Positions 2,747 to 30,161 of a DNA stretch of 64,000 bases are shown here, one piece after another. The DNA is taken from IMG/VR virus record IMGVR_UViG_3300037477_000009, positions 1-64,000 of that record. One strand, written 5' to 3'. Each line of letters starts with the position of its first letter. Position 1 is the stretch's first letter. The notes beneath the pieces are model-generated. The model was not told the DNA's origin, ran no database searches, and saw only the letters and a list, made by a program, of their open reading frames with translations. Both the position numbers and the translations under genes were made by a program. The DNA is from a virus. Lineage: Duplodnaviria; Caudoviricetes.

Positions 2747-2775
2747 GTTTTTTTTGATTTGGGTTAGTGAATATC

Positions 2776-3018: not shown

Positions 3019-3028
3019 ACTCGTAATT

Positions 3029-3499: not shown

Positions 3500-3510
3500 G
3501 CTTTTATAAT

Positions 3511-9382: not shown

Positions 9383-10714
9383 TTAAGCAGCGACAATTTG
9401 TTTCGCCATATGTTGCGCTCCTAAAATTTCTACTGCCTGATAACTCAGCCAGTCAGTAGTCCAGTTGGCATCTCTGCCAATTGGTATAGGTGCTAACAGT
9501 CCTTGATGCACTTCTTTATAGATCGCATCTCCAGTGCCACCTTCAAGTGGTTGCTGAACGTATCTCATACGGATGCGTGGAAGCACACCAGCAAGTTGTG
9601 TCTTGATATTATCAGTAGGCACAAAGTAGACGTGCTTGTATATTGTGCTTGCACCAACGAAGTTGAATAACTGAGGATGATCTATAATTGGTAAGCGTTT
9701 CTTTTGGAATGTGAATCCAGCATATACAAACTTCTCAACCATCATATCAATTTCCCGACCACCGATGTTCATTCTTACTGAAGTAACACCAGCACTTCCT
9801 AAATTTTTCAAGAAGTCATCGTAATGCGCTCCGGTCAATACACCATGCCACATCATGTAGTTATTAGGACATTTGTTCGCTGTGAACTGTGTTACCAGGT
9901 CTTTAAGATCAGCTATAACAACAGTACCAGGTGTCGTTACTTGGTCTTGAATTCCACCCTGATCTATAATATAGTTATGCAATCCCCTGCACGTTTGGAA
10001 TGTATGACCAGCAGCATTTGCAATTGCAGGTGCTGCATCACTGAATGATGTTGAACTCATCTGTCCTGCCAAACACTGCGCTGCAATCTGCGCTCTTAAT
10101 GATTGCATTTTTTGTGCGTGTTGAACGAGCATGACATAAGGCTGCCCTTTAAAATTCACCTCTACCTTACTTGCTTTTTGTACGTCTGTAATCTCATCAG
10201 ACTCTCTGAAAATTTGAATCTTGTTGAGATACTTTGTCCAACTGTACCTTCTTGATTCTTGCGCTCCACTTTTTTCAACTTGCGCATTTGAAATCACTGC
10301 AAGTTTATTTGTATCTGCGATGGTTAAGTTTGTGCCATCAACTGCTTTGATAGTAATATCATCTTGCGCACCAGGTGTAAGAGCGGTAACAATTGCTTGC
10401 TTACCCAAAGGAGTGATCACTGTATCCCATAGTCTCACATAGCCTGATGTACCAGTAGAAAGTGTGAATGATACTGTAGGTGTACCGCTACCAGTAACTG
10501 TAGCATCGTTTACCACAAGCACCAGGAAGAGTGCTTCATTTACAAAGTTGTGGAAATCGAACATACTCGTAGGCTCATACCTCTGAGTAGTTATGAAAAA
10601 GTCCAGGAAGTCATCCTCATTTTGGATGTCAACTACGGACTTCTCTATTTCACGCTGATCCATATATGCGATTGCGGAAATATATTTTTTATTCATCGCA
10701 CCGATTGTAGGCAT
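9383..10714 (-). CDS. Major capsid protein
   Basis: 443 aa; order terL-portal-scaffold-this gene; followed by a strong hairpin. Confidence 0.75.
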   Translation of the reverse strand: MPTIGAMNKKYISAIAYMDQREIEKSVVDIQNEDDFLDFFITTQRYEPTSMFDFHNFVNEALFLVLVVNDATVTGSGTPTVSFTLSTGTSGYVRLWDTVITPLGKQAIVTALTPGAQDDITIKAVDGTNLTIADTNKLAVISNAQVEKSGAQESRRYSWTKYLNKIQIFRESDEITDVQKASKVEVNFKGQPYVMLVQHAQKMQSLRAQIAAQCLAGQMSSTSFSDAAPAIANAAGHTFQTCRGLHNYIIDQGGIQDQVTTPGTVVIADLKDLVTQFTANKCPNNYMMWHGVLTGAHYDDFLKNLGSAGVTSVRMNIGGREIDMMVEKFVYAGFTFQKKRLPIIDHPQLFNFVGASTIYKHVYFVPTDNIKTQLAGVLPRIRMRYVQQPLEGGTGDAIYKEVHQGLLAPIPIGRDANWTTDWLSYQAVEILGAQHMAKQIVAA

Positions 10715-11855: not shown

Positions 11856-11908
11856 CGAAGGTAAAATGCATTTATAATAAGTCGATCAAAAAACGGGGGC
11901 GAAAGTTT
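11856..11908 (-). promoter_or_regulatory. Candidate late promoter upstream of scaffold/MCP
   Basis: TACCTTCG (-7 like) at 11856-11863, TTTG 23 nt upstream, and a 24-bp block 22/24 identical to 40714-40737. Confidence 0.55.
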
Positions 11909-14220
11909 CAGGCCATCTGCATCTGCTGTTCTGGCGCAGCTTGTTGCTGCATCTCAGGCTGCTGCATTCCAGGCTGCATATCCCCAAGCTGTGGTGGCAA
12001 GCCTGGCTGCTGTTCACCCATCGGCATACCACTCTCTGCTCCTTTCATTTTCTCCTGGCTGGCTATTTGTTCTTGCGCCATTCCGTATTTTACTTGCAGT
12101 TCCATTTCTTTGATCTTCATCTCCATTTGTTTTTCTTGCAGCATATACTGTGTCTTTAACTGCCACTCCAGTTGTAGCGTTTGCTGCTTGGATTGTTCAG
12201 CAGCCTGCGCAGATTGCATCTGTACCTGTGCATTCTGCTGTTGCATCTGCATGGCCTCTTCCTGTTTGCGCTTCTTATTCTTTTCTATTTTCAGATTCAG
12301 TATTTGTTCTTGTTGTTTCAGGTTGCTCACGTTTTCTACAGTGATCGCATCAGTCACATCCAGGTCACCTCTCGCAATACTCTCCTGGATATGTTGCTGT
12401 AGCATTAACTTCTGCTCATCAGTTGGTTTATCATCGAGCATGATCCCGAAATGGTGAAGTGCAAAGTCAGGTGACATCTTAAAGAACTGAAGCGTGTTAG
12501 TACCGAGTGAGTGTACATAACCGGATACGTCTCCTTCCTTCACTGCACGTTGCAGTCTGCATACAACTGTTTTCGCCAGTGAGAGTAGCAATTGCTTTTC
12601 CGCAAATACGAATTGATATAATGAGTTGCTGGTGGCTTCATATGCCATCTTCGCTGGAGTCGTTAATGTTTTTGGATTTGGAGTTGATCCATCTGTCATC
12701 TCATTGAAGCCAGTGGCCTCTCTGATCATGTTGATGTTGTTGGTTAAATCTCCCCATGCCTCCCTGATCGCTTCACCATAATTGGTCTGCACATATTCGA
12801 TGGATTTATAATTCACGTTTGTTCCTGCTAGTTCCGCTCTCCTGGTTATCAGTATGCCTGTCTGAAACATCATCTCCACAAGCTGCTTGGGTGTCATAAC
12901 TGCTCCAGCTTTGCCATAGGCCACACCTTCCAATGCTGTTAAATCCATTTCGATCAGGAATGGCAGCAACTGATTTCTGATGTTCTGTAATTTCAACCAG
13001 GCTATTTGTGTTTGATCACCAATAGGAATGATATCCTGCATAATTCCTTTGGTTGTCATGTTATCGAAGTAAGTGGTCAGTACATGGAAATTCAGTTTTG
13101 ACTTTGAGAACGATTTGTAATCACGCAATTGATATTCCTCTAAACCCCAATTGTAAATTAAACCTGTATCGAGAATGTATTTTGCATGATACACCATCTC
13201 AAACTTTTTACGCTTATACTTTTCACCATTGGATTCATACGATGCCCTGCCCACTTTTACGTTTCCTCTTTTATCAGTACGCTCTTCAAATACAAATTCG
13301 TCAATAGAAATCCATTGCAGGTCAAGCACCTTTACCTTGAACAGATCGCCTTCTCTCTCTGATCCGTAACGTGGATTACCATATCTGCCCTGTGATGTGC
13401 TAATGATATTTTCGTATTCTTGCTTGGTGAATTGATCACCTGCTTCCATCTTGAGTTCATTTAATGTCATGTACTGCAACTCACCGAAGTAAAGTGCATC
13501 CCTGAAGTCTGGATACACACAAGCATTAGAAATTAAGTTGCGCAAGTCACAGTGGCGAAGCCTTATACGTTTGTTGGTATCAATGTAATCACGCACCACA
13601 GCAGTTCCATAATCGAATGAATCATCCCATACACGATCCCTGATCGCAGCAATGTCATTTTCTTCAAAGACCATCTTCACACCGAGTTCTGCTTCAAGAG
13701 CCATAGCGTGTTTGAAGCCATGTGACTCCATCATTTTTAATTCATCCAAGTCTTTTGGCTCATCATCGTTCATCTGTAGTGCTGGTGAATTGAGTAGTTC
13801 AGGATTTGTTTGCTCTGCTTCCTGGCGCAGCATCAGCTTCGCATAGATCATCGAAACCTTCATGTCGATCTGATCTCTTGCCAGTGCATCAACAGGTGTG
13901 GCGATGATGTTGTAATCTCTTTTCTTCAGCATACCAAGAGCGATGGCTCTGTGTTTCTTTATTACAGGGAGAATGTTGAAATCTATATTGAGGTATGAGG
14001 TATCAGTTAATTCATCAACACCCATTGTTCTCTTGTACTTGTGATTCGGTTGATTCGCCAGTGCATACTGCCTGATCCTATCGTACTCTTCAGTGTTGCG
14101 ATAGAACATCTGACCAGGTAAGGTATCATTGCTGTACCAGGCTGCTTCGCACCACTGCAAGTGCCACTCTTTATTCTTCAGCGAAGGATCGATGTCGTGC
14201 TTTGGGAATGCTCTTATCAT
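11908..14220 (-). CDS. Portal protein
   Basis: 770 aa directly after terL; helical, with a Q-rich coiled-coil C-terminus typical of podoviral portals. Confidence 0.85.
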   Translation of the reverse strand: MIRAFPKHDIDPSLKNKEWHLQWCEAAWYSNDTLPGQMFYRNTEEYDRIRQYALANQPNHKYKRTMGVDELTDTSYLNIDFNILPVIKKHRAIALGMLKKRDYNIIATPVDALARDQIDMKVSMIYAKLMLRQEAEQTNPELLNSPALQMNDDEPKDLDELKMMESHGFKHAMALEAELGVKMVFEENDIAAIRDRVWDDSFDYGTAVVRDYIDTNKRIRLRHCDLRNLISNACVYPDFRDALYFGELQYMTLNELKMEAGDQFTKQEYENIISTSQGRYGNPRYGSEREGDLFKVKVLDLQWISIDEFVFEERTDKRGNVKVGRASYESNGEKYKRKKFEMVYHAKYILDTGLIYNWGLEEYQLRDYKSFSKSKLNFHVLTTYFDNMTTKGIMQDIIPIGDQTQIAWLKLQNIRNQLLPFLIEMDLTALEGVAYGKAGAVMTPKQLVEMMFQTGILITRRAELAGTNVNYKSIEYVQTNYGEAIREAWGDLTNNINMIREATGFNEMTDGSTPNPKTLTTPAKMAYEATSNSLYQFVFAEKQLLLSLAKTVVCRLQRAVKEGDVSGYVHSLGTNTLQFFKMSPDFALHHFGIMLDDKPTDEQKLMLQQHIQESIARGDLDVTDAITVENVSNLKQQEQILNLKIEKNKKRKQEEAMQMQQQNAQVQMQSAQAAEQSKQQTLQLEWQLKTQYMLQEKQMEMKIKEMELQVKYGMAQEQIASQEKMKGAESGMPMGEQQPGLPPQLGDMQPGMQQPEMQQQAAPEQQMQMA

Positions 14221-14221
14221 T

Positions 14222-16240
14222 TTAACTTGCTTTATAGAGTTTGAAAATTGAGTTGATGTCCTTCACTTCATTCATGTTTCTCTTTGCCATCCTATGCATA
14301 TCAGCCATCAGTGTCCAGAGCGCAGCCATTGTCAGGTCATACTTCTGCGTGTCTTTAACATCGAAAGCGATCAGGTCATGTATGAGATCAGGGAAAAACA
14401 TTCTGTCGGAAAAATTGATAACATAGTCCTGCATAATTTCCAGGCCAGTGATCTTGTTCTCTTGTGTAGATGGAATACCAGGCTCTTTCTTGCCAGGTAT
14501 TCTTATCAGGAATCTGCTATAGCCACGATCTTTGAAGTAGCGAAGCAGACCAGGCTTGTTATCTTCTACCAACAATGGTGATCCGTAGAAGTGGCACTGC
14601 TTGATCATGTCCTCAAAAAATATGTTTGCTGTTTCAGGTCGTGCCAGGTACTTGCACACAAATGCTTTGTTGTATTCCTGATTCTCACCGAATGGATCAT
14701 TACGCTTCAGTACAAATGATGCAGCGTTACTCCTCCGGTAATCTTCTACAGTATCGTGATCAAATGGATCACACCCTGCTACGAACTGGTATGCATTACC
14801 AGGCTCAATGCTGCTGCCAAAGTGTGGCGAGTTATTTGTTTGCTCCGGTTTATCAAACATCCAGGCTATCTCCCATCTGCCTTTTGTGTTTCTCTGCCAC
14901 TTTACTTTAGTATCACGAATACCATTCTCCCAATAGAAATCACCACGCTCCTTATAATTCTCCATACCACTGAGTTCATCAAGGCGATCATTTAATCGAA
15001 CTACATTAAAGTGACATTGCTGGCTGCTGATCCTGAATGCTTCTTCTTCAGTGAGCGGCTCTTTTCTTATCAGATCATTTAATTCATCAGGCTCATTGAT
15101 AAAAGATTTTCTATCGGCCAGGATCGCAGCAAGTGTTTCCTTCTCTTCTGGATAACCATACACATCATAGTCACCACTGCGAGATGCTGGTATAAAAAAT
15201 TTATAAAGACCACTCTTGGTTGATCCACCTTTTTCTTTTTCAAATTGATTGCTTTGTTTCCATAAGTCTTTAAATCCAAACCGCACACCTATCTCTTCCA
15301 CTGTTGTGGTCACGATCATTTTACCGATCACTCTTCTACGCTGATCCATTAAACAATACTTCACCACCTTGTGCCTGTTAAGTATGTTCACTTCTGTCTT
15401 ACCACTTTCATCAAGCAGTAATCGCTTCAGTTTACGACCATCGTATGCTTTCGGTTTGGAATCTTTGAAACCAATAGTTGATCTGAGTTCTTTTATTTTT
15501 TCTCTCCTGGTTGCAAGTTTTCCTTTCTGTGCAGTGCGGAAAAAGGAAAGCAACTCTTTGGGAGCATCTCCCTTAGTTGTGTCATATGTTGGCTTGAAGA
15601 AAAATGGTAACGCTTGAAATGGCGGTATAAGTTTAATCTGGAATACCTCTTGGCTATCGTCTTTATTTTTGGACTGGATTCCTGCGTGAGAATCTGCACA
15701 GCGACTGATGCACTCTTCAAGTATGCACGTTGCACGATATGTTTTTCCATCACGTCTCTTCCTGATCTCGATCAGGCCAAAACATTTTGGATCGAATACA
15801 CAATACTGCCAAAAAATAAAATACTCCCAATCAATGATGCGAAAATCTGGAAGGCCGATGTCCAAATTCCAGTAGTTCAAATAGTAATAATGTAAACCGG
15901 ATAAATACCGCATTTCACTCTTACCATCCTTGCCACGATTGTGAAACCATACACCATAAAGTCTACGATGCCATTCACGTTGTTTTATTTTCAGTAAGTC
16001 CTGGTGTACATAAGTTGGATTATCTTTCTTCATCTCATCCTCTTCTGCTTTCCAATCCTCCAGTTCTATCGGTAGTTCAACCGCTTCCCAATATTGTTCG
16101 GCTGCTACATTGCTGCGCTTGATAATATCAACACGCTTGATCTCACCAGTCTCCACATGGATACCATATCCCACTGGAGGAATCCAGCAAGTCAGTCCTT
16201 GTATTACTACAGTTGATCCACCTTCGATCTTGTTGAACAT
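14222..16240 (-). CDS. terL: Terminase large subunit
   Basis: Walker A EIRKRRDGKT, Walker B LLLDESGK, and a nuclease domain AGCDPFD...VEDN...KYDLTMA. Confidence 0.9.
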   Translation of the reverse strand: MFNKIEGGSTVVIQGLTCWIPPVGYGIHVETGEIKRVDIIKRSNVAAEQYWEAVELPIELEDWKAEEDEMKKDNPTYVHQDLLKIKQREWHRRLYGVWFHNRGKDGKSEMRYLSGLHYYYLNYWNLDIGLPDFRIIDWEYFIFWQYCVFDPKCFGLIEIRKRRDGKTYRATCILEECISRCADSHAGIQSKNKDDSQEVFQIKLIPPFQALPFFFKPTYDTTKGDAPKELLSFFRTAQKGKLATRREKIKELRSTIGFKDSKPKAYDGRKLKRLLLDESGKTEVNILNRHKVVKYCLMDQRRRVIGKMIVTTTVEEIGVRFGFKDLWKQSNQFEKEKGGSTKSGLYKFFIPASRSGDYDVYGYPEEKETLAAILADRKSFINEPDELNDLIRKEPLTEEEAFRISSQQCHFNVVRLNDRLDELSGMENYKERGDFYWENGIRDTKVKWQRNTKGRWEIAWMFDKPEQTNNSPHFGSSIEPGNAYQFVAGCDPFDHDTVEDYRRSNAASFVLKRNDPFGENQEYNKAFVCKYLARPETANIFFEDMIKQCHFYGSPLLVEDNKPGLLRYFKDRGYSRFLIRIPGKKEPGIPSTQENKITGLEIMQDYVINFSDRMFFPDLIHDLIAFDVKDTQKYDLTMAALWTLMADMHRMAKRNMNEVKDINSIFKLYKAS

Positions 16241-16892: not shown

Positions 16893-19800
16893 TTAACGCT
16901 CTGCTTTGGTTGTTATCGTGAACTCATCACCGCCATGCTTTTTCAAATCCTTCTCATGCGCAATTATCTTCAGTTTATTATTGAACTGGTTGATATATGA
17001 ATCACCTACACCAAACCACCCAAGTGTATCGATCCAGAATATCAGTTGATGCATATGCTTCTCTTCATCGGTTAACTCCACTCTTTCGGTTTCTGGATGA
17101 AGGCCACCTTTCGTAACCTCATCTATCTTGCCAGTTGTTATCATCCTGCCATTACTCAGAACATCCACTATCTTATTTGGCAGGATCGCATAGAGGCCAG
17201 CATCATCCCATACATCCTTATCAGATAGTTTCGGAGAGAAGTACAAGTTTGGAAACTCTTTGATCGTACCACTGGCATACTGCTCTGTTGCTATCAGTCC
17301 GTATATCGCATTCATTCCTTCCTGGAAACCTGTCTGCGTTAATGTACCCATACCACCAAAGAAGAAGTCACTGAATGTACTGGACATCCACTTCTTCATC
17401 TTCTTAGTGGTCTTGACTTCCTTGCCAGCGATAGTGATCGTTACTTCATCATCATCGTCATCTTCATCCTTGTAACCAAGCATCTTTGCAACAGCGTTTG
17501 CTGCCAGCGTAGATAACCAGCCAGTCACAAATATTTTTATACCATTAAAAGTAAGCTGCTCTGCTACTGTTGCAGCCAGTGAGAGCGCAGCCTCTTTCGG
17601 ATGTTCCCAATGAAGTATCTTCTGCATATCATTTGTCATCCGCACTCTCATGTTCACGTTGAAGGATGAGAACGGCAACATAATATTGGTCATAATTTTT
17701 TTCCATCCATTACCGGAATCTCTGAGTATGCTACCCAAGTTGCTTGAATCATTCACGTTCTGTGATCTTGATACCATTTGTTCTGCATATGCTGCTGCTT
17801 CCTGGTTTGCATTAAGGTGTTCGGTTTGCCAGTTGACTGTGTCCAGGTTAACACCCTGCTTCTTCAGGCTCTGCATATAATATGCAAGCCAGGATGTGCG
17901 AGCAATACTTACGTCTGCTTTTACAAGTGACTTCATTGTAGCATCATGCATTTTTTCTCCGAGACGTATTGCTGCTTTGTAAACCGACATTGCGTTACCA
18001 GCAAGCACTGATCTGTCGATCTCTCCGGTATCAACCTTCCGTTTGTATCCAGCCTCTGTGCCACCACGAAGGCCAATGCCAAACTGATCAAAGAGTTCCA
18101 GCTTGTTGCTCATCAAAAGTGCCTTATAGAATAATCCAACATCAGTACCCATATTAAATTGAGTACCTGCTCCTACACTCACATACTGCCATATCCACTG
18201 GAGAACAGAGCCAAGTGACATACGAGTCGCTTTTGCTTGCGCAGCATTAAGTGTTTTAGCAATGCTACTTCCTTGCTCATCCACCATTGGCATACGGCCT
18301 CTCTGCAACTGCACCATCTTCTTCACCCCATCAAGCACAACATTCCGGTTGTATCTTCCACCAAACAGATCAGCTACTTCAGGATTGGCAATAAATTTTT
18401 TGAAGTGAACAATCGCTTTGGAAGTTTCTACATCGTAGTTCGTTTCGTAAAATAATTTTGATTGCACGTTATCGAAATCAAGATTCAGCACATTACCCTT
18501 TGGCAGATTCTGTAACCTGACCTTTGCGATCTTCGTGCCAGCAGGTTGACTGCGCACACCTTTACTCATGTACGCTGCTGCAAAATCATCACGATCACGA
18601 TTCTCTTCAACACCTTTCTCACCATTGTAACCTTTGAGTGATGTTGCAGTATAGTTCTCTACGTTTTCCCAAATCCTGTTGTTATAAAGTTCAGTGTTCT
18701 CTTGCACCAGGTGCTTGCGTTTCATAAATGCATTCTGCCAGAACTCAACCAACTTGATGTTATGCGGCTCGATGCGCTTCATGTTCGCTGTTACATCAGC
18801 AGGAGTCTTTGCATCTTTGAATAGTGTATCAACTACTCGCTGCAATACTATCCCTTCCAGTATATCTTTCTTGAACTGTGGCTCTGATTCACGCAAACGC
18901 TTTGCACTTTCTTCGATCCATCCTTTCCTGCGTTCAAACTCAGCAAGCACTTCTTCTTCTGTACCACCGAAGTTATTCATAACGTCTGCATACACTCCCC
19001 TCCGGTATCTGTTCATTGCAGAGTCAGCGTTCTTCATTCCCTTCTTCAGTTTCTCATACTCCTTGACAGTGTTTATCGTAAGCACTTTTGATTTTGCATG
19101 ACCACTGTTGATATCAAACACACCACTCATGCGCTGGAAGAACGCAGCAGCCTTTGAACTCCTGGTGATAAACTCATGTATCAACTGAGTGCTTGCAAAG
19201 TGTTTTACGTTTCTTAAAAATCTACCACTCAGATCACCGAATGAAACTTTATTATCCTTCCAGTGCTTCTGTGTTTCTTTTATTGCATCATTCACACTTG
19301 ATATGATGGACAACTCACCTGATCCAACAAAGTTTTCATTCACTGCAATATTGTTCATTGCATCAATCACCTTCGCCAGTTCAGTAGCACTTAGTTTTTC
19401 CAAGTCCATCCTCAAGTACCTGTTCATAATTTCCTGCTCTTCTTTTGTAAGATCAGGATTACTGTTACTATACTCCTGTACACCCATCTGTGCATATTCT
19501 GCTACAGACCTGAGTGCATTCATCTTATTAAACCAATCATCTTCCAAGTCCTCTTGTGCTTGCTTGATCTCAGCATCAGTACCTTTCTCCAATGAGTCGA
19601 TCACCTTCTGCATTTCTGCTGCACTCATCAGTGTTGGATTGATCTTACCTGCTGTTACCAGGTCAGCATACATATCAGCAAGCCTTGCAGCAGCAGCTTT
19701 GTCTGCTATCTTCAGTTGCTCGTTAGTATAATTGGTGATCTCAGCCAGGCTGATATTTAAGAACGGATTCTTCACACCACTGCGAGAAACCTTTACACCT

Positions 19801-22800
19801 TCAGCTACACCAAGTATTCTTGCAGCAAGATCATTGTACTGATAGATGTCCTCAACATTGGATGGACTGATGCGCAAGAAATCCTGGATCACCTGGTTAG
19901 TTGTTGCGCTATTGCGATCCTTCCTGTTCTTGATCGTGCTTCTTATTTTTTTCTTGTATGCATTTGCGCCTTGCAAATGTTTATCGTACTCCACATCATC
20001 AAGCACCTTCTCCAGATAGTCAGTATACTTCAGCATACTGTACGGACTTCTTACGTCATTGAGTTTACTCACTACTGTTTTCAGCAGGTTTGCCTTTACA
20101 ACACCAGTAAATACTTTGCGATCCTCCGCATCCTTCAGCATTGCAGTGATCTCTTTGTGTATCTCTTCTTTTACTGCATCAACTTTTTTCGCATTGCTTG
20201 CACCTGTTCCTTGCAGTTGACCTTTTACTTTTGCTCTGATGTCATTAAGTTTCTGCTGGAGAACTGCATCACGAACACCACCACCTTTACTGAATTTAGC
20301 CTGGCCGCTTTGTACCTGTGCTATTACATCAGCAGTTATATTTATTGAATGCTGCCTTGAGTTGTTGTTGTACACAGTTCGCATAGCATCCATAGCCTCT
20401 GCCTTACTTTTAAATCTTCCTTGCACCTGCCCATTCATTTTTGCTATCACCCAATTCCTACCATACCCATCAGGCGCAGTTTCGTAAACATTAAGTTTCC
20501 CTCCCAACTGAATTTCAGTTGTTCCTGTTTCCTGACCAACAAGTTTACTTGCTGCACCACCAAGCATACCTGGCTTGCCTTCTGCTGGCACTCCATAGAA
20601 ACCTTCCATTCCTTCTTTGCGTGGCAGTGATGTGCCTTCATCTTCAGTCTGCATTCTTTTCCAAATGCGATCAGTGAGTTTATTTAATTCATCCGTATTA
20701 TGACTCCTGGATAGATTACGATCCACTGCTTCAAACAACTCATCTCTTGTCGTTATACGGATACCCTCTTCTTCCAGTCTGTTTGTTCTTAACGCATCTT
20801 CATTACCTTCAAACGCATCAGCATCTGTCTGTTCATTTATAGCAACTGTCCACTCACCAGGTGCTGGCGATACTTCTATATCTTCTGGCTTTATTTTCCA
20901 TTCGGCAGCGATACGCTTGATATCAGACTCTGTAACTTCACGATCATACCATCCCAAATCTCTGTGCCTTGTGCCTCTTGCAGAGCGTGGTGCTTCCACA
21001 CCTTCTTTCACCTTGATCTTATATCCTTTTGGCTTCATCCTGGTATTCCAATGAATTTCTTCTGATCCCCATCTATTGAATTGTTGCGTACCAGTTGTCC
21101 ATGCAAGTTTATCTACTCCTTGCTTCACTGCTTCCTTCAGTGCTATCTTTAATGCAAGTTTCACCCAATGAGATGTCTCGGTTACATATGGCGCAGGAAC
21201 AATTTGCGATGTAGGCTTTTCATCTTCCCGAAGTTGATTCACAAAGGCAAGCCTTCGATCCCTTGTTTGGTACATCTTATCATGCGCTACCTGCAATTCT
21301 TTATTACCAGCCTTTAGTTCACTGGCAATATTCGTAACCTTGCCTGTTTCTCTTATCTCACGCATCATCTTATTCACTACACCTTCAGCCTTGCGCTCTG
21401 CTTTCCACAACTCTTCAATTTTTTCATTTATCGCTGCTTTCTCTTCGGCTGTCTTTTTTACTTTCGGTTTCAAGAAACCTTCCTTCCTACCTGATTGCGC
21501 CCAATCACTTTGCACCTCTTCCAGAAACAGAATCTTTTTACCATTGGCATCAGTGCGTGTACTCATGCGCAGGTGAAGCACCAGGTTTGGCTCACCTCTA
21601 AAGTGTGGTGGCCTGTATTGTAATTTATCTCCTTCCTCTTCTTTTTCCATTAGTGCTTTCAACTCTTTGTCCTCTGCCACTGTTCGCCTTGTAGTAGGTA
21701 TGTTCAATAAATCCTGCATCCTTGTGCCTTCTTCATTGGTCAGTGATGGCTTCACTGGCAGCGTTACCAGTATCTCCTTATAATCCTCCTTCTCTCCTGG
21801 TAATTGATATTGCGAATAATGTGTATTAGTATCGGTATCATTGATGCTTGCTGGATAGTTAATAGCACCAGTTTCTATTTGCAGTCTTGAATTAATAGCA
21901 TCTCCATCATCATCTATCAATGTAAACCCTGCATCAAACGCAGCAAGTGCTTCTCGTTCATTTTGCACAGATGGCATTTCCAGATCACTCAACTCTTTTT
22001 CCTTTATTGTGATTGGATTCTCTTTAAGAAATTTTCTTATCTCATCCCTTGTCACACTTCCTTGTTGTGCAGATAACCAGGCAGTGAGTCCAGTCCATTT
22101 TGCTTCTTCCTTGTTGCCAAGTTTTTCCATCCAGTGTTTCACTGGCTGCTTATCAACTTTCGATTCCAGTAATGTTTGTTCAAGTGGTGAATAGAAACCA
22201 TTCACCACATCAGCCATGATTGATTTACCTGGTGCTGCTTCACCTTTGCTGAACTTCGCTTGTGACACTGGCTCTCGATACATACTTTCCTTCGTAGAAA
22301 AATCTTTATTCTTTCCTTTGTTCTCTACGAAACCAAACCGCTTATAGAATTCAGTAAGCCTTGCAACAGATGTTCCACCGAAGTCGGTTGATGGAGTTGC
22401 AACAATGCGCTTATTATTTTCATCAGCATACTCAGTAATATCTTGCATGGCCGCAGTACCAACACCAGTGCCTCTGTCTGATTTAGGAACTTCTATTCTG
22501 GACAACGTAAGATCGCCTTTATCCAAACTTCCTATTAGATCAACTATGATACCATGCTCTGCTTCCAATGACTTTGAAAACTCAGATGGTGATTCGCCTT
22601 TACTATACTTTCCTTTTGATTCAACCAATGGCTTCCATCCTTCACTTGTTTTTATTTCAATTTTTGCAGGGTTTATAGTTTCTCTGATAAAGTCATCAAC
22701 ATCGGCCTCTGTGCCAGATACCTCCGATGAAGGAAATCTCAAAAGAACATCACCATATTTTGAACTTTTAGGTTCTTCACTCATCACATATGTTCTTCCA

Positions 22801-25800
22801 CTGACATCCTCTATAGGTATGCCGAGTTCGTTTAACTCATCCTCAGACAACTCAGTCACATCAACATACTCACCATCTCTTCCTATCACCATTGACGATA
22901 TCATTCCCTCATCATCCACTAAGGATTGTCCTAATGAAGTTGGCTGTAACCCTGTTTCGGTTATTGATCCAATATGTTCTTTTTGAGTTTCGTGATACAG
23001 GTAGTCTCCTGCTTTTTCCATAGCAGCCTGATCTCCCTTACTGAACTTCGGTTTTGCTTGTTGAGTAGAAGAAAATAATTCAGCAGCAAGTTTTGCAGCG
23101 TTCTCAATTATTGGTTTTGATTTATCATACTCAACACCACTTTCTTTTTGTTTTGAAAGCCAGCCGAACATTGCATTAAAGAGATCACGCATCAGGTCAA
23201 CGAAACTGGTTGCCTTTGAATCACGAATCGCTTTACTTGTTTTGCGGATGTCATCCAGGTTATCAGCAAATACATCACTGGCATACTCACGAAACTTTGG
23301 ATTGATATTCAGTTCTGCCATGAACTCACTGAAATTATCCAAGCCTTGATTAAGGTCTGATCTATGCAGGAAGCCTGGCTTACCTTTCTTCGCAGCGATG
23401 TACTCATACATATCTTGCAGTGCATTGTATGCAGTAGTTCCTTTTGCTTTCTCTGCTGCTGCACTATCAATGGTAAGGAAGTGCCTGAACTCATGCATCC
23501 CATTGTAGTACGAATCACCAATGTCCTGCACTTGCAGCAGACCACCTTTCTTACCACCGAGTGGATGATATAGTCCACCATACTCACCGCCTGGTACTTT
23601 CTCCAGATCGGCATACGCATCAAGTCTTATGATATTAAAGTTCGGATCAGCCTTGATCATCTTCAGCATATCGGTATACTCACCATCGTGCGCTATAAGT
23701 TTATCGATGAAGTCTGTTGCAGTATCACCTTCCTTAACACCAAGTTGTTTCAGTGTTGCTGGCTTACTACTTAAACTGAACTTTGCCTTTGCCTCTTTTT
23801 CTTTCTTCGTCATTTTCGCTTCCTTCTTTGCATCATCTTCTTCCTGGCCTTCATACTTTGCATCTGAATCGATGTGATCTGCAAACCGGATCACCTTAGA
23901 ATTACTAATGGTCGGGAACACTTTCATAAAGTCCTTGCGCTTCACGATCTCATTTGTTTCCAGATCAACTGTGTGTGCCTTCCAGTTCAATCTGTCTTGC
24001 AGTATATGTAACCTAACCTTCGCATTCTTATCAGTGCCACGAATTACCCATTCGTATGAATCATGCTGGCCAGGTATCTTGATGTGTTCAACAGGTGAGT
24101 CAAGTTCAAGCACTGCGTACACTTGCTGCGATTCTGTATTGCGTAGCAGTGGCTCATTGAGTACAGCAGCAAAACCTTCCCGTAATTTTGTTGCTGACAA
24201 TCCGCCGCTTTTTAATTTGGTATCACCAACCTCTTCAAAGAAGGCAACCATTTGGAGTGCCGCCTCTTCATCAGTTACGGCTTCGGCTATTTGATCAAAT
24301 ATGTAATCATTCACTTCTGTGCGCTCCGGAAACGTGCTTACATTCAGATCATACCAACTTTCCATAATAGTATGCATCTCTTCCAATGGTGTGCTGGCAG
24401 GTATCACTGGTAAGTTCTTTGGCTCTTTAATGGCTTTCACCAATCCTTCATCACTCGTTCTGCCATCATATTTTTTATCTCCAGCCTCCGCAAGTCTTTT
24501 TCCAGCAGCCTTGCGATCATCTCTCAATTGATTTAATGCTCTGCTTATCGATGTCACTACTTGCTTTTCTGACAAGTGCATCTTCTCATCAAATGCTTTT
24601 GATGTTAAGATGCGAAGCATACCTGTTGATCCTGCCGAAGAGTTTAATACTTTATGCGTAGTTGCTGATACCAGTGCCATCCTTACTGTACCATTTTCGC
24701 TTTCGCCTCTCTTCTTACTCAACTTCATTTGTGCATTAAGAAGATTTGCAAATTGCGCTGCTGCTGATTCAGTTGTTGCTGCCCAAAAATTTCCTTCAGG
24801 ATGGAACTTGATCACATAAAATATTCCACCACTTCCTTCCATCAACACTTCACCATTCTTAAGCAACCTTCCAGTGAATGCATGATCAGGCATTGTAAGC
24901 ACTGCTGTCTTGCTTGCAAAATTTGACAGTGTTTTATCTTCAGTTACAAATCCATCCTTTTTTAACTGAGCAAATTCTTCAGAGTCCTTCGCCAACTCAT
25001 ATGTCAATCCATGTGCAGGATCATGCACATTATCAATTGAGAATTTACCTCTTGGCTTTCCGTTTGATCCAAGTAGCGCAGGTGCAAATGCGATCTGCCT
25101 TCCATTGTGAATAGCATCAGAAAACTTTTGTGCTATTTCATAGATGCCATCATTTTCGCTGAACTCAATATTCGTAGGCAACCTGAACTTCAAGCCTGTC
25201 ATCCCAATGATCCTGTTGATCAGGTCTTTTATTTTATTAACAGTAGACTTTGATAGTTTGTCGAGATTGATCTCACGATTTCCAACAAGTGCCAGGAACT
25301 GAACAACAGTTTCTTCATGCACCTTTGCTTCACCCTGATCTTCATATTTCAATCCATGCCTTATCGCTTCTTCAATGCCTGGTACATCATCAAGCATCTT
25401 AACTACATCCTCATACATTCCCTTGATAATCTCAGGTGAATCTTTTGTGAGTGCAGTGAGAAGCGGATGTGCGCCTTCATGGAATATTGTTTCACTGGTT
25501 GCTTTTGTTAGATTGATGTGTATTTGATTCGTGCCATCTTTACTAATGTAAAATCCCTGAGACAGTGATTCTTCTTTTGTACCATCGGCCTGATTCACTA
25601 CACCATCCGTATACGATGCCTGGCTGTAGTGTGCAGTCACAGTAAGATTAGGCATTCTCTTGCTCCATGCTTTTATAATACTTGCTACACCATCAAGGAA
25701 TCCACCGAATACACCACCATGCTTCTCAGCAGCCTTCCTTAGTTTGGCAATATCTTTTCCAGAGAACGTAACTGATGGCTGTGTTTTATTTGTGCCTGGA

Positions 25801-28800
25801 GGTTTCAACCATTCATCACCTGCCATTGGTGCAGATTCTTTTTCGGTTTCGGTTTCAGGCTTTTGCCATTTTTCCCTAATCTCTTTCTCTGCTTCTTCAA
25901 TAGTCATCTTTCCAGAAGGATCGGTATCCGCATATGTTTCTGCTTCCGCTAATGCTTCTTTTAATGTTGGCTTCTGTAATATCTCGCTGCGAATTTGTGC
26001 AGGTGAAATCTCTTTTACTTTGCCAGATTCAGATTCTTTTTCAGTCTCCTTATCTTTTTCCTTTTGTGGCTCAGGTTTTTTTTCAGTTTCCTTCTCAGTT
26101 TCTTTTTCTGTTTCAGGTGCTTTCTCCTTCTCGGTTTCTTTCTCAGACTCCTTTTCTTTTTCAGTTTCTGTTGCAGGTGCTGGCTTTTCAACAATTGGAT
26201 TTGGTACTTCCATCTCCACTTCTCTTTCTACTTCATCATACACTTCATTGAATGCACCATCAGCAATTTCACCCATTGCATCAACGTGCATCTTTATCGC
26301 CAGGTCAAGTGCTAACTCAGGATTTTCTATAGTGATCAGCTTACCATCTCTTGTTTGTACAGTAACAGATTTCACATTTCCATTTTCATCCAGTGTAACA
26401 GGACTCTCATCGCCATCAGGTAATTTCAGATCACGATCATTGATCGCCTTCTCACCAACAGCAGCAACTTTATTTCCCTTGCCATCAATAACAAAGTAAT
26501 GGCCATCCTCAACCTTCAGGACTCCTGTTGCTTTTGTTCCATTGGGGAGAGTGACTGTGACTCTTGATCCTGTTGCTTGTTGGAGCGCAGGTTCGACTTT
26601 GATCTTAGTTTTGTTAGTACGGCCAGTTGGTACTTTTTCGGTAACCTTGCCAGTTTTAGTTGTTGTCGTAAATTCATAATTCTGTATTTTTTCTATTAGC
26701 GGTTCTATCAAGTGTGCCGCATTTGGATTTTTTTCTAACGCATCGTACAGTTCATTCTCTGCTGCTTTTAACTCATGCTCGTTTATATATTCAGCATTGT
26801 TCACTCTGTCAACCACACCTTGTGTTGTATCGCTGACCTTGTGAGTAGGATCATACCATACCTGCCCTACTTTTGTTTTCGCACCAGGTGCTGTTGCCTG
26901 TTGTGCAGGTGCTGCTTGCGTTTTAGGTGCAGGATATTTTGAATTAATCTCATTCCACTTTTCCAACTTCGCTTCGCTATTTGCCAGTGCTTGCTTCGCC
27001 ATTTCGTTACCAGGATCATGCAGCAAGGTTTCCTTCGCAAACTTTACATTGTTCTCAAAGAATTTTTTTGGATTGGCAAGAAACTCTTGCGCCTGTTTGA
27101 CCTTCCACTTGGAATCGCTATTCAAATCTTCATAATAACTATCAAAGTCAAACGCATCTTGCAGTTCTTTATCTCTTTTAGCTGCAAGCATCTCAGGTGT
27201 AACACCCTGTTCTTTTTCATCTTTGTTCGGTATTGGCATTGGTAAACGAGTGATCACTTCAGAACCTTTTTCTCTTGCTGCCTTTCTTGCTGCCCTTGCT
27301 TCCTTCAATTCTTTATCGGTCTGCTCAAGTATTTCCTGAGACTTCCCTCTCTTACCGAATGTGTGTAATTGAAAATTTCCTTTCTTATACTCATCAAGGA
27401 ACTTCGGATTCTGCAATGCTGCTTCTGATTCACTCACTGATAAAACATATTGTTCGCCACTCGGATAAGTAAGAACAACATAATCACCTTTACCTTCTTT
27501 AACGAACTTCACCATGTTGTCACCGATCTCTTTCGCTTTTTCTTCTGCTGCTTGTTTTAATCCAGGATCAGTTTGTGCTGCTGCCTGGCGAAGTGCATCT
27601 TGTTTTTGGAATGCCATTGAAGCATAGACTTTTTGCTGACCAGGTGTAAGTCCATATTTTTTCCCATTGGTTATTAATTGCTCTGAATGCTTCAGTGTGG
27701 CGGCCATTGATTCTGCTTCCTCCTGATTGATCACGCCACCACCAAACAGATGTGCAACGTATGCCTCTGCAAATGATTTTCCTCTGCGCTGCATGATGTC
27801 GAATACGAATTGATCTCTCTGACCAGGCGCAACATTTTTGAAATCATTCTTCAGCATAAATGTTTTCACCTGCTTCTCAGTTTCCGCTTCCTCTCTCATG
27901 TGAGTCATCAAGTGACCACCACTTCCCATTAAAAACATTGGTGCAATATTCATCAGTGTGTGTTCTGCCCGATCCCAAGTCATAAGTTTGTAACCTTCCT
28001 GATATGGCTGGTCATTTCTTATTGCTTGTTCAAATACATCCTGATGAAACTCTTGCGGAAACTCACCGACTAGTTCTTCTATACCACCCCAAAACAATCT
28101 CTTTCCAAGTGATCCGGTAGTTAATCTGGCTGCTCTTGCTGATATATTTGCAATCTGTTCTGCTTTTAAAAATGGTGCGCCTTCAAGCATATATGCCCAC
28201 ATCAAATTAACCTGGCTATCGAATGTTCGCTTACCTGCTCTGTTTGCTTTTAATGCATCACCGCCACTCTCAGCGAAAATATCATCACGCATTCTTACTG
28301 CCATGTCACCTGTCTCCACCATCCATGCTGTAAGACCACCAGCTACTGCTGTCAACGCTGCTGGCGCACCCATACCACCAGTAGCGAATGTTACTGCTGC
28401 CGTTGCTGCCATACTTGGTAGCATAAAGCCTGCGATATTACCTGTTGCCTTTGCGAGTTTATTCAGATCAAGATAATCTCTCCAGGAATTCAATTCAGTC
28501 CTACCAGTCTGAATTGAATTCGCAAAATAATCTGCTGCCACTACACCAGTATCAAAATTTAAATTTGATGACCATGATCTTACAACACCAGCCATTGACT
28601 TGGCTGTTTGCCTGAATAAGTTTAGTGAAGGATTATAGGCAACACTATCCAATGCGTCTCTGAAATCCTTACCACCTGTATCAACATCTTTTAATGCCTG
28701 GCCATACACCTTCTGTATTTTTGCTTGCAGTTCAGGACTCGGCTGGAACTTATATTTTTTTTGCGCCTCTGCTAATTCTGCCCTTCCCACCTTTTCGATC

Positions 28801-30161
28801 TGTGCTGCTTGCAATCTATACTTCGCATTATACTTTGTATTGATCTCATTTTGTTTGTGCAAGAGTTGATTGTTCAGTGCATCGAGTTGAGCATTTGTAT
28901 TTTTATACAACGCTTCCGCTTGCTCTTTACTCGTTACAAGTTTTGCCGCTTGCTGGTAATCTGATTTTATTTTACTGGCCGTATCGGTTAATGTTTGATG
29001 AAATGCTGTGCCTTCCGCATTCGCTTGCTTGGCGAGTTCAGTAGATACAACATTGGCTTTTATTACCGCCTTCTGTCTTATTTCCTCACCTTCTTTAAAT
29101 CCTGCATTGTACTCCGCATCACGCTCTTCTTCCATCGTCTTTCCATAGGTCTTAGTGTATATCTCATCAAATTTTTTATTAACCTCTGGCTGAATAATTT
29201 TAAACGCAACTGTTGCCATTGCTTCATTATACAGAAGTGTCTTATATGTTCCTTCATCACTCAGTCCATATTTCTTGGCTTGCGCTTTTGCGTATTCACT
29301 TATCTTGAATTCATCAGGCACTCTATGAACTCCTTCTGCGATCCTTGTATACGCATTGAAATATTCTCCAATCGGCTCAAGGTCTTTTTTCACTGTTTCG
29401 TGAACAGCCTCTCTTGCATCATCTGCCTTCTTTACTTTCGCAGCATCCTTCGCTACTCGTTCAGCCTTACGTCTCTGCTGCTCCTGTATGTATGCGTTCC
29501 TGTCAACCTTGATTGAACTTCCAAAACCTGCGCCTCCATCCGGAGGTAAATTTGTCTCTCCTTTGGAAACAGAAATATATTTATCAGTTTGTTTCTGCGC
29601 CCATTTTATATTGCGATCATAATCGATCACACCCTGTTCACCGCTAGTTATATTTCCATCTACATCACGCTCCGGTGTGAGTCCTTCCATCTGCGCTTTC
29701 TCATACTGCGCTGGCTTAAGATCAATTTCTTCTTTTGGTTGCACTACTGGTTTGGTAGGCATACTCACCATCTTACCTGATGGAGATGGTTGCTGCTTAC
29801 CCGAAAGAATAGTAGTCATATAATCATGCTCAAACGGATCAGTTGTTGTTGCCAACTGTGGTTGCGCAACTTGTGCAGGTGCTTTTGTTTTTTGCGCTGG
29901 CACTACTGCTGGTGTTGCTATTGGTGGCTGTGTCTCGGCAGGTGGTTTTGGTGTGACATTGTTATTCATCCAATCCTTCCCCATCTTTCTTTCAACAGCA
30001 CGATCAAGAGTATATCCCTGATCGCTCACCAGTGCATTCACAACTTTCAATCGCTTCAATGCTTCGCCATCGCCTTTGAGTTGTGTATACTTTTTTAGCA
30101 GCACACCATCATCTGCGCCTTTATTCATCTCTGCCAACAATTTTTCTAACCAGTCATTCAT
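16893..30161 (-). CDS. Large polyvalent virion/ejected protein (4422 aa) with two zincin peptidases, ART-like, GNAT and ExQSDW modules
   Basis: HEGAH at 25467-25481, HEFRH at 23481-23495, YHET...GLQP at 22941-22997, RGTGVG/FYKRFGF at 22330-22475, EEVQSDW at 21501-21521. Located after two ejection-type genes. Confidence 0.85.
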   Translation of the reverse strand: MNDWLEKLLAEMNKGADDGVLLKKYTQLKGDGEALKRLKVVNALVSDQGYTLDRAVERKMGKDWMNNNVTPKPPAETQPPIATPAVVPAQKTKAPAQVAQPQLATTTDPFEHDYMTTILSGKQQPSPSGKMVSMPTKPVVQPKEEIDLKPAQYEKAQMEGLTPERDVDGNITSGEQGVIDYDRNIKWAQKQTDKYISVSKGETNLPPDGGAGFGSSIKVDRNAYIQEQQRRKAERVAKDAAKVKKADDAREAVHETVKKDLEPIGEYFNAYTRIAEGVHRVPDEFKISEYAKAQAKKYGLSDEGTYKTLLYNEAMATVAFKIIQPEVNKKFDEIYTKTYGKTMEEERDAEYNAGFKEGEEIRQKAVIKANVVSTELAKQANAEGTAFHQTLTDTASKIKSDYQQAAKLVTSKEQAEALYKNTNAQLDALNNQLLHKQNEINTKYNAKYRLQAAQIEKVGRAELAEAQKKYKFQPSPELQAKIQKVYGQALKDVDTGGKDFRDALDSVAYNPSLNLFRQTAKSMAGVVRSWSSNLNFDTGVVAADYFANSIQTGRTELNSWRDYLDLNKLAKATGNIAGFMLPSMAATAAVTFATGGMGAPAALTAVAGGLTAWMVETGDMAVRMRDDIFAESGGDALKANRAGKRTFDSQVNLMWAYMLEGAPFLKAEQIANISARAARLTTGSLGKRLFWGGIEELVGEFPQEFHQDVFEQAIRNDQPYQEGYKLMTWDRAEHTLMNIAPMFLMGSGGHLMTHMREEAETEKQVKTFMLKNDFKNVAPGQRDQFVFDIMQRRGKSFAEAYVAHLFGGGVINQEEAESMAATLKHSEQLITNGKKYGLTPGQQKVYASMAFQKQDALRQAAAQTDPGLKQAAEEKAKEIGDNMVKFVKEGKGDYVVLTYPSGEQYVLSVSESEAALQNPKFLDEYKKGNFQLHTFGKRGKSQEILEQTDKELKEARAARKAAREKGSEVITRLPMPIPNKDEKEQGVTPEMLAAKRDKELQDAFDFDSYYEDLNSDSKWKVKQAQEFLANPKKFFENNVKFAKETLLHDPGNEMAKQALANSEAKLEKWNEINSKYPAPKTQAAPAQQATAPGAKTKVGQVWYDPTHKVSDTTQGVVDRVNNAEYINEHELKAAENELYDALEKNPNAAHLIEPLIEKIQNYEFTTTTKTGKVTEKVPTGRTNKTKIKVEPALQQATGSRVTVTLPNGTKATGVLKVEDGHYFVIDGKGNKVAAVGEKAINDRDLKLPDGDESPVTLDENGNVKSVTVQTRDGKLITIENPELALDLAIKMHVDAMGEIADGAFNEVYDEVEREVEMEVPNPIVEKPAPATETEKEKESEKETEKEKAPETEKETEKETEKKPEPQKEKDKETEKESESGKVKEISPAQIRSEILQKPTLKEALAEAETYADTDPSGKMTIEEAEKEIREKWQKPETETEKESAPMAGDEWLKPPGTNKTQPSVTFSGKDIAKLRKAAEKHGGVFGGFLDGVASIIKAWSKRMPNLTVTAHYSQASYTDGVVNQADGTKEESLSQGFYISKDGTNQIHINLTKATSETIFHEGAHPLLTALTKDSPEIIKGMYEDVVKMLDDVPGIEEAIRHGLKYEDQGEAKVHEETVVQFLALVGNREINLDKLSKSTVNKIKDLINRIIGMTGLKFRLPTNIEFSENDGIYEIAQKFSDAIHNGRQIAFAPALLGSNGKPRGKFSIDNVHDPAHGLTYELAKDSEEFAQLKKDGFVTEDKTLSNFASKTAVLTMPDHAFTGRLLKNGEVLMEGSGGIFYVIKFHPEGNFWAATTESAAAQFANLLNAQMKLSKKRGESENGTVRMALVSATTHKVLNSSAGSTGMLRILTSKAFDEKMHLSEKQVVTSISRALNQLRDDRKAAGKRLAEAGDKKYDGRTSDEGLVKAIKEPKNLPVIPASTPLEEMHTIMESWYDLNVSTFPERTEVNDYIFDQIAEAVTDEEAALQMVAFFEEVGDTKLKSGGLSATKLREGFAAVLNEPLLRNTESQQVYAVLELDSPVEHIKIPGQHDSYEWVIRGTDKNAKVRLHILQDRLNWKAHTVDLETNEIVKRKDFMKVFPTISNSKVIRFADHIDSDAKYEGQEEDDAKKEAKMTKKEKEAKAKFSLSSKPATLKQLGVKEGDTATDFIDKLIAHDGEYTDMLKMIKADPNFNIIRLDAYADLEKVPGGEYGGLYHPLGGKKGGLLQVQDIGDSYYNGMHEFRHFLTIDSAAAEKAKGTTAYNALQDMYEYIAAKKGKPGFLHRSDLNQGLDNFSEFMAELNINPKFREYASDVFADNLDDIRKTSKAIRDSKATSFVDLMRDLFNAMFGWLSKQKESGVEYDKSKPIIENAAKLAAELFSSTQQAKPKFSKGDQAAMEKAGDYLYHETQKEHIGSITETGLQPTSLGQSLVDDEGMISSMVIGRDGEYVDVTELSEDELNELGIPIEDVSGRTYVMSEEPKSSKYGDVLLRFPSSEVSGTEADVDDFIRETINPAKIEIKTSEGWKPLVESKGKYSKGESPSEFSKSLEAEHGIIVDLIGSLDKGDLTLSRIEVPKSDRGTGVGTAAMQDITEYADENNKRIVATPSTDFGGTSVARLTEFYKRFGFVENKGKNKDFSTKESMYREPVSQAKFSKGEAAPGKSIMADVVNGFYSPLEQTLLESKVDKQPVKHWMEKLGNKEEAKWTGLTAWLSAQQGSVTRDEIRKFLKENPITIKEKELSDLEMPSVQNEREALAAFDAGFTLIDDDGDAINSRLQIETGAINYPASINDTDTNTHYSQYQLPGEKEDYKEILVTLPVKPSLTNEEGTRMQDLLNIPTTRRTVAEDKELKALMEKEEEGDKLQYRPPHFRGEPNLVLHLRMSTRTDANGKKILFLEEVQSDWAQSGRKEGFLKPKVKKTAEEKAAINEKIEELWKAERKAEGVVNKMMREIRETGKVTNIASELKAGNKELQVAHDKMYQTRDRRLAFVNQLREDEKPTSQIVPAPYVTETSHWVKLALKIALKEAVKQGVDKLAWTTGTQQFNRWGSEEIHWNTRMKPKGYKIKVKEGVEAPRSARGTRHRDLGWYDREVTESDIKRIAAEWKIKPEDIEVSPAPGEWTVAINEQTDADAFEGNEDALRTNRLEEEGIRITTRDELFEAVDRNLSRSHNTDELNKLTDRIWKRMQTEDEGTSLPRKEGMEGFYGVPAEGKPGMLGGAASKLVGQETGTTEIQLGGKLNVYETAPDGYGRNWVIAKMNGQVQGRFKSKAEAMDAMRTVYNNNSRQHSINITADVIAQVQSGQAKFSKGGGVRDAVLQQKLNDIRAKVKGQLQGTGASNAKKVDAVKEEIHKEITAMLKDAEDRKVFTGVVKANLLKTVVSKLNDVRSPYSMLKYTDYLEKVLDDVEYDKHLQGANAYKKKIRSTIKNRKDRNSATTNQVIQDFLRISPSNVEDIYQYNDLAARILGVAEGVKVSRSGVKNPFLNISLAEITNYTNEQLKIADKAAAARLADMYADLVTAGKINPTLMSAAEMQKVIDSLEKGTDAEIKQAQEDLEDDWFNKMNALRSVAEYAQMGVQEYSNSNPDLTKEEQEIMNRYLRMDLEKLSATELAKVIDAMNNIAVNENFVGSGELSIISSVNDAIKETQKHWKDNKVSFGDLSGRFLRNVKHFASTQLIHEFITRSSKAAAFFQRMSGVFDINSGHAKSKVLTINTVKEYEKLKKGMKNADSAMNRYRRGVYADVMNNFGGTEEEVLAEFERRKGWIEESAKRLRESEPQFKKDILEGIVLQRVVDTLFKDAKTPADVTANMKRIEPHNIKLVEFWQNAFMKRKHLVQENTELYNNRIWENVENYTATSLKGYNGEKGVEENRDRDDFAAAYMSKGVRSQPAGTKIAKVRLQNLPKGNVLNLDFDNVQSKLFYETNYDVETSKAIVHFKKFIANPEVADLFGGRYNRNVVLDGVKKMVQLQRGRMPMVDEQGSSIAKTLNAAQAKATRMSLGSVLQWIWQYVSVGAGTQFNMGTDVGLFYKALLMSNKLELFDQFGIGLRGGTEAGYKRKVDTGEIDRSVLAGNAMSVYKAAIRLGEKMHDATMKSLVKADVSIARTSWLAYYMQSLKKQGVNLDTVNWQTEHLNANQEAAAYAEQMVSRSQNVNDSSNLGSILRDSGNGWKKIMTNIMLPFSSFNVNMRVRMTNDMQKILHWEHPKEAALSLAATVAEQLTFNGIKIFVTGWLSTLAANAVAKMLGYKDEDDDDDEVTITIAGKEVKTTKKMKKWMSSTFSDFFFGGMGTLTQTGFQEGMNAIYGLIATEQYASGTIKEFPNLYFSPKLSDKDVWDDAGLYAILPNKIVDVLSNGRMITTGKIDEVTKGGLHPETERVELTDEEKHMHQLIFWIDTLGWFGVGDSYINQFNNKLKIIAHEKDLKKHGGDEFTITTKAER

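Follow-up and report, generated by a model that had tools for sequence, protein, structure and literature searches.

The 64,000-nucleotide stretch analysed here (the window; positions 1 to 64,000 of IMG/VR virus record IMGVR_UViG_3300037477_000009, Caudoviricetes) comes from a 75.5-kb virus genome rated 100% complete by CheckV. It contains a giant open reading frame (ORF), P0001, in which six short motifs of the form K-[FY]-S recur between unrelated cassettes (Table 1). Judged by its size, its unrelated domains, its place in a viral genome and the domains it has in common with recognised members, P0001 is a member of the polyvalent proteins. An initial annotation, made from the sequence alone, had set the six motifs at the domain boundaries of this protein and proposed either that its HExxH peptidases cut the chain there to release effectors or that the motif is a joint for cassette swapping. 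All six motifs lie where they had been placed, and the spacings between them (421, 245, 146, 118 and 653 amino acids (aa)) are in line with the module lengths then proposed.

The motif is far more frequent in P0001 than composition predicts. The pattern [AGP]K[FY]S was observed six times against 0.29 expected, with a maximum of four in 2000 shuffles, and K[FY]SKG four times against 0.01 expected (shuffle maximum of two). Across the 75.5-kb genome, [AGP]K[FY]S occurred outside P0001 once in each of two other ORFs, which is chance level. A seventh K-F-S in P0001 was considered as a linker motif and rejected, as it sits within a conserved helix of peptidase-like module 1. The six copies are written in different codons, with Ser as TCA, AGT and AGC, Lys as AAA and AAG, and Gly as GGA, GGC and GGT. 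Because the codons vary synonymously and both Ser codon families are used, the motif is conserved as a peptide and not as a DNA repeat. On this sequence evidence, selection acts on it at the protein level.

These data bear directly on the proposal that the motif is a recombination joint for cassette exchange between polyvalent genes. Cassette order and content do vary among homologues, with breakpoints that coincide with the motif, but the same coincidence would arise if the only junctions to persist are those whose linker still works. Common to the six copies are no more than 9-15 nucleotides, with synonymous differences that include TCA versus AGT/AGC, and homologous recombination is unlikely because so short an identity would not suffice. 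The variants also differ between proteins, so that donor and recipient would rarely match. A DNA repeat or recombination site was thus rejected on the codon evidence, and this part of the initial annotation is hardly credible.

To judge whether the motifs mark module borders, we compared P0001 by local alignment and phmmer with about 175 other giants (given P numbers below). P0001 resolved into eight or more homology blocks, every one with its own set of relatives; peptidase-like module 1, a 420-aa module, peptidase-like module 2, the GNAT cassette and two ExQSDW blocks were all separate. No homology block shared with other giants crossed sites 2-6, and the blocks began or ended within a few residues of these motifs, bearing out the claim that they delimit modules. 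Site 1 alone was spanned, by relatives that have inherited both flanking modules. One such alignment is with a 3694-aa 'structural protein' of Flavobacterium phage elemo, which aligns to P0001 aa 1496-2084 and has SRFQAN at the aligned residues. Homologues were also found to gain, lose or reorder cassettes at the motifs, a check that had been suggested with the original proposal. P0002, for example, lacks the peptidase-2 and ART-like cassettes and has the 420-aa module joined straight to GNAT, with about 165 aa inserted between GNAT and the ExQSDW module.

AlphaFold2 models of aa 1470-1770 (from a 7-sequence alignment) and aa 2620-3310 (from a 27-sequence alignment) were of moderate quality, with a mean predicted local distance difference test (pLDDT) score of 68. 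At site 1, a core of pLDDT 74-89 was followed by a 21-residue stretch of pLDDT < 50 that ends in GKFS. At site 5, AKFSKG lay inside the first 29 residues, modelled at pLDDT 30-39. Site 6 came directly after a confident helix, and pLDDT fell there from ~85 to < 50. As judged from the alignments and models, the motifs lie at module boundaries, in linkers modelled with low confidence at sites 1 and 5.

Table 1. Junction motifs, modules and neighbouring genes of P0001, with positions in the window
Feature	Position in window	Strand	Residues (aa)	Remarks
Junction motif 1, GKFSID	25032-25049	minus	1705-1710	
Junction motif 2, AKFSLS	23769-23786	minus	2126-2131	After Lys/Glu-rich low-complexity stretch
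Junction motif 3, PKFSKG	23034-23051	minus	2371-2376	P0175 has QLSKG at the aligned place
Junction motif 4, GKYSKG	22596-22613	minus	2517-2522	
Junction motif 5, AKFSKG	22242-22259	minus	2635-2640	
Junction motif 6, AKFSKG	20283-20300	minus	3288-3293	
Seventh K-F-S	25119-25127	minus	1679-1681	Inside conserved helix of peptidase-like module 1
Peptidase-like module 1	25050-25841	minus	1441-1704	HEGAH at 25467-25481 (aa 1561-1565)
Module of ~415 aa, function unknown	23787-25031	minus		Homologous to parts of elemo 'structural protein', P0002, P0038 and P0015
Peptidase-like module 2	23052-23768	minus	2132-2370	HEFRH at 23481-23495 (aa 2223)
Cassette of ~140 aa	22614-23033	minus		'ART-like' in the initial annotation; weak language-model lead only
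GNAT-like acetyltransferase cassette	22260-22595	minus	2523-2634	Sub-threshold Pfam matches and P0002 homology
ExQSDW module	20301-22241	minus	2641-3287	Two homology blocks, ~aa 2648-3031 and 3097-3288
N-terminal third	25842-30161	minus	1-1440	Coiled-coil-like part, hydrophobic segments, Glu/Lys/Thr-rich low-complexity spacer
C-terminal 1129 aa	16896-20282	minus	3294-4422	Hydrophobic segments, Asp run; without junction motif
Giant ORF P0001, 4422 aa	16893-30161	minus	1-4422	Polyvalent, probably virion-packaged; beside large terminase and portal
Large terminase gene	14222-16240			Adjoins giant ORF
Portal gene	11908-14220			Near giant ORF, in virion-gene block

Both HExxH motifs of P0001 proved real, HEGAH being kept in six relatives and HEFRH matched by HExxH in four. 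In module 1, the HExxH of HEGAH (aa 1561) and a downstream Glu were invariant in seven aligned sequences (P0001 with six relatives); this alignment (A2) has invariant Glu at 12 and 52 residues past the second His, candidates for a third metal ligand. In module 2, homologues P0173-P0176 had HExxH at the matching place in 4/4, and their alignments stopped at aa 2365-2376. Module 2 also resembles clusters of which one has LPD23 in 18% of its members. The model of module 1 gave weak structural rows for collagenase, IrrE and the N-domain of anthrax lethal factor. Close IMG/VR relatives of this module numbered none by single-sequence query, and the alignment query gave three. After module 1, most aligned relatives carry NP[IL][KQ]FS[KR], QFQG or QFSKD. 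The conserved HExxH and downstream Glu make both modules putative zincin-type peptidases.

The ExQSDW module had 8690 relatives at E <= 0.001 in a 1.84-billion-protein library, nearly all in giant proteins, and more than 560 in IMG/VR; a single cultured-phage record holds it. The initial annotation had treated it as one unit, and a conserved module does lie between sites 5 and 6, but it consists of two homology blocks and not one. It has no Pfam family, and its invariant residues include E-E-x-Q-S-D-W, W-T-T-G-x-Q and G-M-x-x-F-Y. Searched by fold, its AlphaFold2 model gave no more than a weak GNAT-like row, to SSAT (probability 0.95, E 0.04), with a high root-mean-square deviation.

Both flanks of this module carry the junction signal. 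Within the 30 residues upstream, F[SQ] was present in 35% of 159 representatives versus 11% of random windows, and [KRQL]F[SQ] in 22% versus 3%. Counts peaked 5-20 residues before the module, and the controls F[AT], F[DE] and [LIV][SQ] showed no enrichment upstream of it. On the downstream side, the module ends in a conserved tail, I-T-P-E-L-x3-V-x2-G-x-P-x-F-[SQ], which takes the form ITADVIAQVQSGQAKFSKG in P0001. The tail was collected from 54 proteins with a regular expression open to F, Y, L or M at this residue; all 54 had Phe, followed in 50 by Ser or Gln. The Phe of motif 6 is at least 90% conserved in the 27-sequence alignment.

For a comparison with stand-alone forms, 80 loci were fetched from the IMG/VR relatives, 15 of them with open frames of ~650-790 aa. 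Upstream F[SQ] was found in 0/15 stand-alone ExQSDW forms versus 14/36 long frames (p = 0.0045), the short forms being mutually related so that the effective sample is < 15. Stand-alone tails retained Pro-Leu-Phe, and the following residue was often Thr or Ala. Nine of these loci (L030, L039, L044, L046, L062, L063, L065, L079 and L086) have a common upstream G-L-P-V-G-M-S stretch; the same nine have a ~30-residue Gly/Ala/Pro-rich tail after Pro-Leu-Phe.

The main rival to cleavage gives the motif a structural or docking role in an uncut chain, whether by capping or tethering domains or as a handle for the capsid interior, the portal/tail channel during threading or a chaperone. It ranks as such chiefly because the Phe after ExQSDW is also conserved in stand-alone proteins of ~700 aa. 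That motif 6 immediately follows a helix modelled with confidence fits a structural role, as does the reported delivery of some proteins with these peptidase domains in uncut form (PMC5512222). Sites 1 and 5 do not fit it so well, lying at pLDDT < 50 and 5-12 residues from the next ordered residue. The motif flanks six unrelated modules and so is not part of any single fold, its upstream copy is absent when ExQSDW stands alone, and it tracks HExxH in the same protein (see below). On balance we regard an uncut element as unlikely, if well worth keeping in view.

The motif is associated with HExxH. It was found upstream of ExQSDW in 48/104 proteins with HExxH versus 7/55 without (p = 2e-5), with an odds ratio of 7-10 in every length stratum; the proteins were cluster representatives at <= 50% identity, and the tests are uncorrected for shared ancestry. 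By our estimate from composition, HExxH arises by chance ~0.05 times per 3000 residues. Over whole proteins with HExxH, P-x-F-[SQ] was seen 150 times versus 52.7 expected (2.85-fold), compared with 20 versus 17.5 (1.14-fold) in proteins without it. The controls P-x-F-[DE] and P-x-F-[TN] were near 1 in both groups.

The two motifs flanking ExQSDW also vary together. Their Ser/Gln states agreed in 35 of the 40 proteins in which both could be read (18 S-S and 17 Q-Q, with 5 mixed; p = 3e-6). The tree of the ExQSDW module has a minimum of 10-11 changes for each state, and sister pairs such as P0098/P0130 and P0002/P0149 change at both sites together.

Other polyvalent proteins repeat variants of their own: QFSLA five times in P0002, LFQPG seven times in P0004, DVRF[RS] nine times in P0010, PQFSKD four to six times in P0101 and NPDIRF four times in P0026. 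In an unbiased tripeptide scan, the top over-represented tripeptide in P0002, P0004 and P0010 belonged to the protein's own junction variant, and related tripeptides ranked near the top across 172 proteins. As read from these repeats, K-[FY]-S is the local form of an x-F-[S/Q] junction signal that is general to the polyvalent proteins of phages and mobile elements. Literature searches found no published description of such a junction motif. A linker scan for an isolated hydrophobic residue in a hydrophilic context was uninformative, many variants having Leu, Met or Ile before Phe. A longer signature, Q-I-K-S-A-x-G-N-x-G-x-Y-x3-N-P-D-I-R-F, closes four modules in P0026 (aa 1284, 1835, 2165 and 2909), and strings resembling QIKSAxxNxGxF...DIRFS occur also in P0028, P0057, P0071, P0095, P0121, L036, L061 and L083.

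Who would read these variants is the point on which a second cleavage model differs. Here the motif would be cut by another protease, either a host enzyme after ejection or an unrecognised phage protease, and the HExxH domains would be host-directed effectors. Host-directed action is among the possible roles listed for these domains (PMC5512222), no co-variation of peptidase residues with the motif variant was seen, and the zincin assignment is itself unconfirmed at the level of the fold. Against this, the range of variants (KFSKG, QFSLA, LFQPG, DVRFR) argues for a reader that travels with each protein and not for one host enzyme, and the motif is associated with HExxH. Neither an S78 (HK97-type) nor a ClpP-type prohead protease could be recognised in the complete 75.5-kb genome, and a trans-acting phage protease is weakened for that reason; a Peptidase_S77 search was uninformative, as the control genomes gave no match. 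Nor does the motif occur in this genome's capsid protein, portal protein or remaining virion proteins, which a maturation protease would usually cut as well. We consider cutting by another protease distinctly improbable.

Self-processing at the motifs by the internal HExxH domains is the best reading, and the six motifs are candidate sites, with our belief and doubt about evenly matched. The initial proposal that the HExxH peptidases cut at the motifs has indirect support: x-F-[SQ] is statistically tied to HExxH, and each protein homogenises its own variant. A uniform variant within a protein would, however, fit any single reader, an uncut docking partner included, and not just a protease. Fold searches gave no clear match to a zincin. 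Iyer et al. 2017 (PMC5512222) had independently predicted that peptidases of this kind process the polyvalent proteins that carry them. That paper contains none of the strings 'KFS', 'RFS' or 'linker' and names no junction or cleavage site.

Several results weigh against self-processing. Neither HExxH module had a Pfam match at E <= 5 or a PDB sequence match, and Foldseek gave no match at E <= 0.001 for the module 1 model (best VIA Z = 4.8). In the model of aa 1470-1770, motif 1 was not docked into the neighbouring peptidase-like domain. The enrichment was weaker at other cassettes: downstream of module 1 the motif was present in 11/26 relatives (42%) versus 22% in controls, and at the GNAT flanks of 11 homologues it was not enriched. 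The HExxH association carries the limit of shared ancestry given above. An independent-pairs test of concerted Ser/Gln switching had only three pairs on well-supported branches and no power, and no column of peptidase-like module 1 went with Ser/Gln type beyond chance (7.5% of permutations scored as high as the best column). Motifs showed no general bias to lie downstream of the first HExxH (89/150 versus 84.8 expected), although in P0001 itself they do lie downstream of it. The Phe after ExQSDW, kept in stand-alone proteins, may be partly structural at that joint. Lastly, the phage N4 virion RNA polymerase, ArdC and TraC1, all with such peptidase domains, are reported to be transferred unprocessed (PMC5512222).

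Under self-processing, the x-F-[S/Q] signal in exposed linkers would be a recognition site, and probably the cleavage site, of HExxH domains in the same chain. A zincin would be expected to seat the Phe in its S1' pocket and so to cut x|F, by analogy with thermolysin-like enzymes. Cutting of P0001, ~490 kDa at full length, would yield an N-terminal product of ~188 kDa, cassettes of ~46, 27, 16, 13 and 72 kDa, and a C-terminal product of ~125 kDa. A wider claim is that x-F-[S/Q], often with Pro at -2, is a general processing code of polyvalent proteins, in which zincins release the effectors and sites are matched to their own enzyme, the Ser and Gln types switching in concert. We hold this tentatively, leaning slightly towards doubt.

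The remaining cassettes could be assigned to differing degrees. The GNAT label of the initial annotation is backed by the matching part of P0002, which is 60% identical and carries PF13673, PF13508, PF14542 and PF00583, whilst the cassette's own matches, to four GNAT Pfam families at E = 1e-4 to 3e-3, were all under gathering scores. A conserved E-F-S-K opens this cassette (window 22569-22583, aa 2527-2531), nine residues past GKYSKG, and is also present in P0002; it may be the cassette's ancestral junction motif. The 'ART-like' label retains a weak lead, an ESM Atlas score of 0.90 to Tox-ART-HYD1, but no sequence homologue was found for that cassette.

Outside the motif-bearing region, the N-terminal third of P0001 is without the junction motif and is common to P0112, P0109, P0033 and P0044. 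Its Glu/Lys/Thr-rich spacer consists of repeated TEKE-like units (window 26007-26189, ~aa 1325-1385) and lies upstream of peptidase-like module 1. The C-terminal 1129 aa are probably a structural or ejection part of the protein. The region aa 3324-4293 is common to P0174. Several hydrophobic stretches and the Asp run lie in window 16896-18761 (aa 3801-4422), a part common to P0118 (E = 5.5e-38); this part may be the membrane-active or structural end of the ejected protein.

P0001 itself had no Pfam family above threshold. Its sequence homologues are giant proteins of 2,400-6,800 residues, and homologues of its cassettes carry PF18760 (ART-PolyVal), PF18838 (LPD23), PF18857, PF18834, PF18814 and PF18812, of which we take PF18857, PF18834 and PF18814 to be polyvalent-protein-associated families. 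Its gene has the terminase and portal genes on one side and further structural genes on the other, and its elemo homologue is annotated 'structural protein'; on these grounds P0001 is probably packaged in the virion. A 443-aa virion protein (window 9383-10714) has a match to PF17236, the SU10 major capsid protein family, at E = 1.3e-7. The polyvalent protein gp47 of phi24B has been seen in virions by mass spectrometry, and no virion proteomics of elemo phages was found in the literature searched.

P0001 resembles several known systems in part. In MARTX toxins, effectors are released by an internal cysteine protease domain, which cleaves after Leu in the linkers between domains. Like them, P0001 is a long chain of unrelated effector cassettes with a putative internal protease, a minimal repeated linker signal and variable cassettes, its own cutting being predicted. 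By contrast, the MARTX enzyme is a cysteine protease activated by inositol hexakisphosphate, the toxin is secreted by bacteria and acts on eukaryotic cells, and the two have no sequence relationship. Internal and ejection proteins are processed during head maturation in T4-like and phiKZ/SPN3US-like phages (for SPN3US, PMC10052503). A short consensus marks the cuts in these packaged proteins, as is proposed for P0001, and the products are ejected with the DNA. The sites there read L/I-x-E or S/A/G-x-E, occur in capsid and scaffold proteins too, and are cleaved in trans by a serine protease dedicated to the prohead. In the genome of P0001, a protease of that kind was not found, only this one protein bears the motif, and the motif consists of an aromatic residue followed by Ser or Gln.

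Closer parallels come from the polyvalent proteins themselves. DdrB of phage P1 is proteolytically processed before packaging and has a C-terminal zincin-like metallopeptidase (MPTase) domain (PMC5512222). By description it is like P0001 in being a virion-associated, antirestriction-type protein with such a domain, and DdrB is known to be cut; it differs in undergoing a single processing event, and no cleavage-site motif is given for it in that paper. The polyvalent proteins described there are, like P0001, giant multi-cassette proteins encoded beside packaging genes, with HExxH and enzyme cassettes. The present analysis differs in defining a concrete x-F-[S/Q] signal, one that is over-represented at the borders of modules and statistically linked with HExxH.

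Few proteins of phages and plasmids are as large or as widespread as the polyvalent proteins, as the count of relatives for the ExQSDW module alone illustrates. The junction signal makes the 2017 prediction of internal cutting experimentally testable, the site itself not having been named before. It also supplies a rule by which unknown effector cassettes of metagenomic giants can be delimited, and it opens the question of timing: whether injected anti-defence enzymes become free inside the capsid or within the host. If the signal is a general processing code, sequence alone could suffice to predict where the effectors begin and end in thousands of giant phage and conjugative-element proteins.

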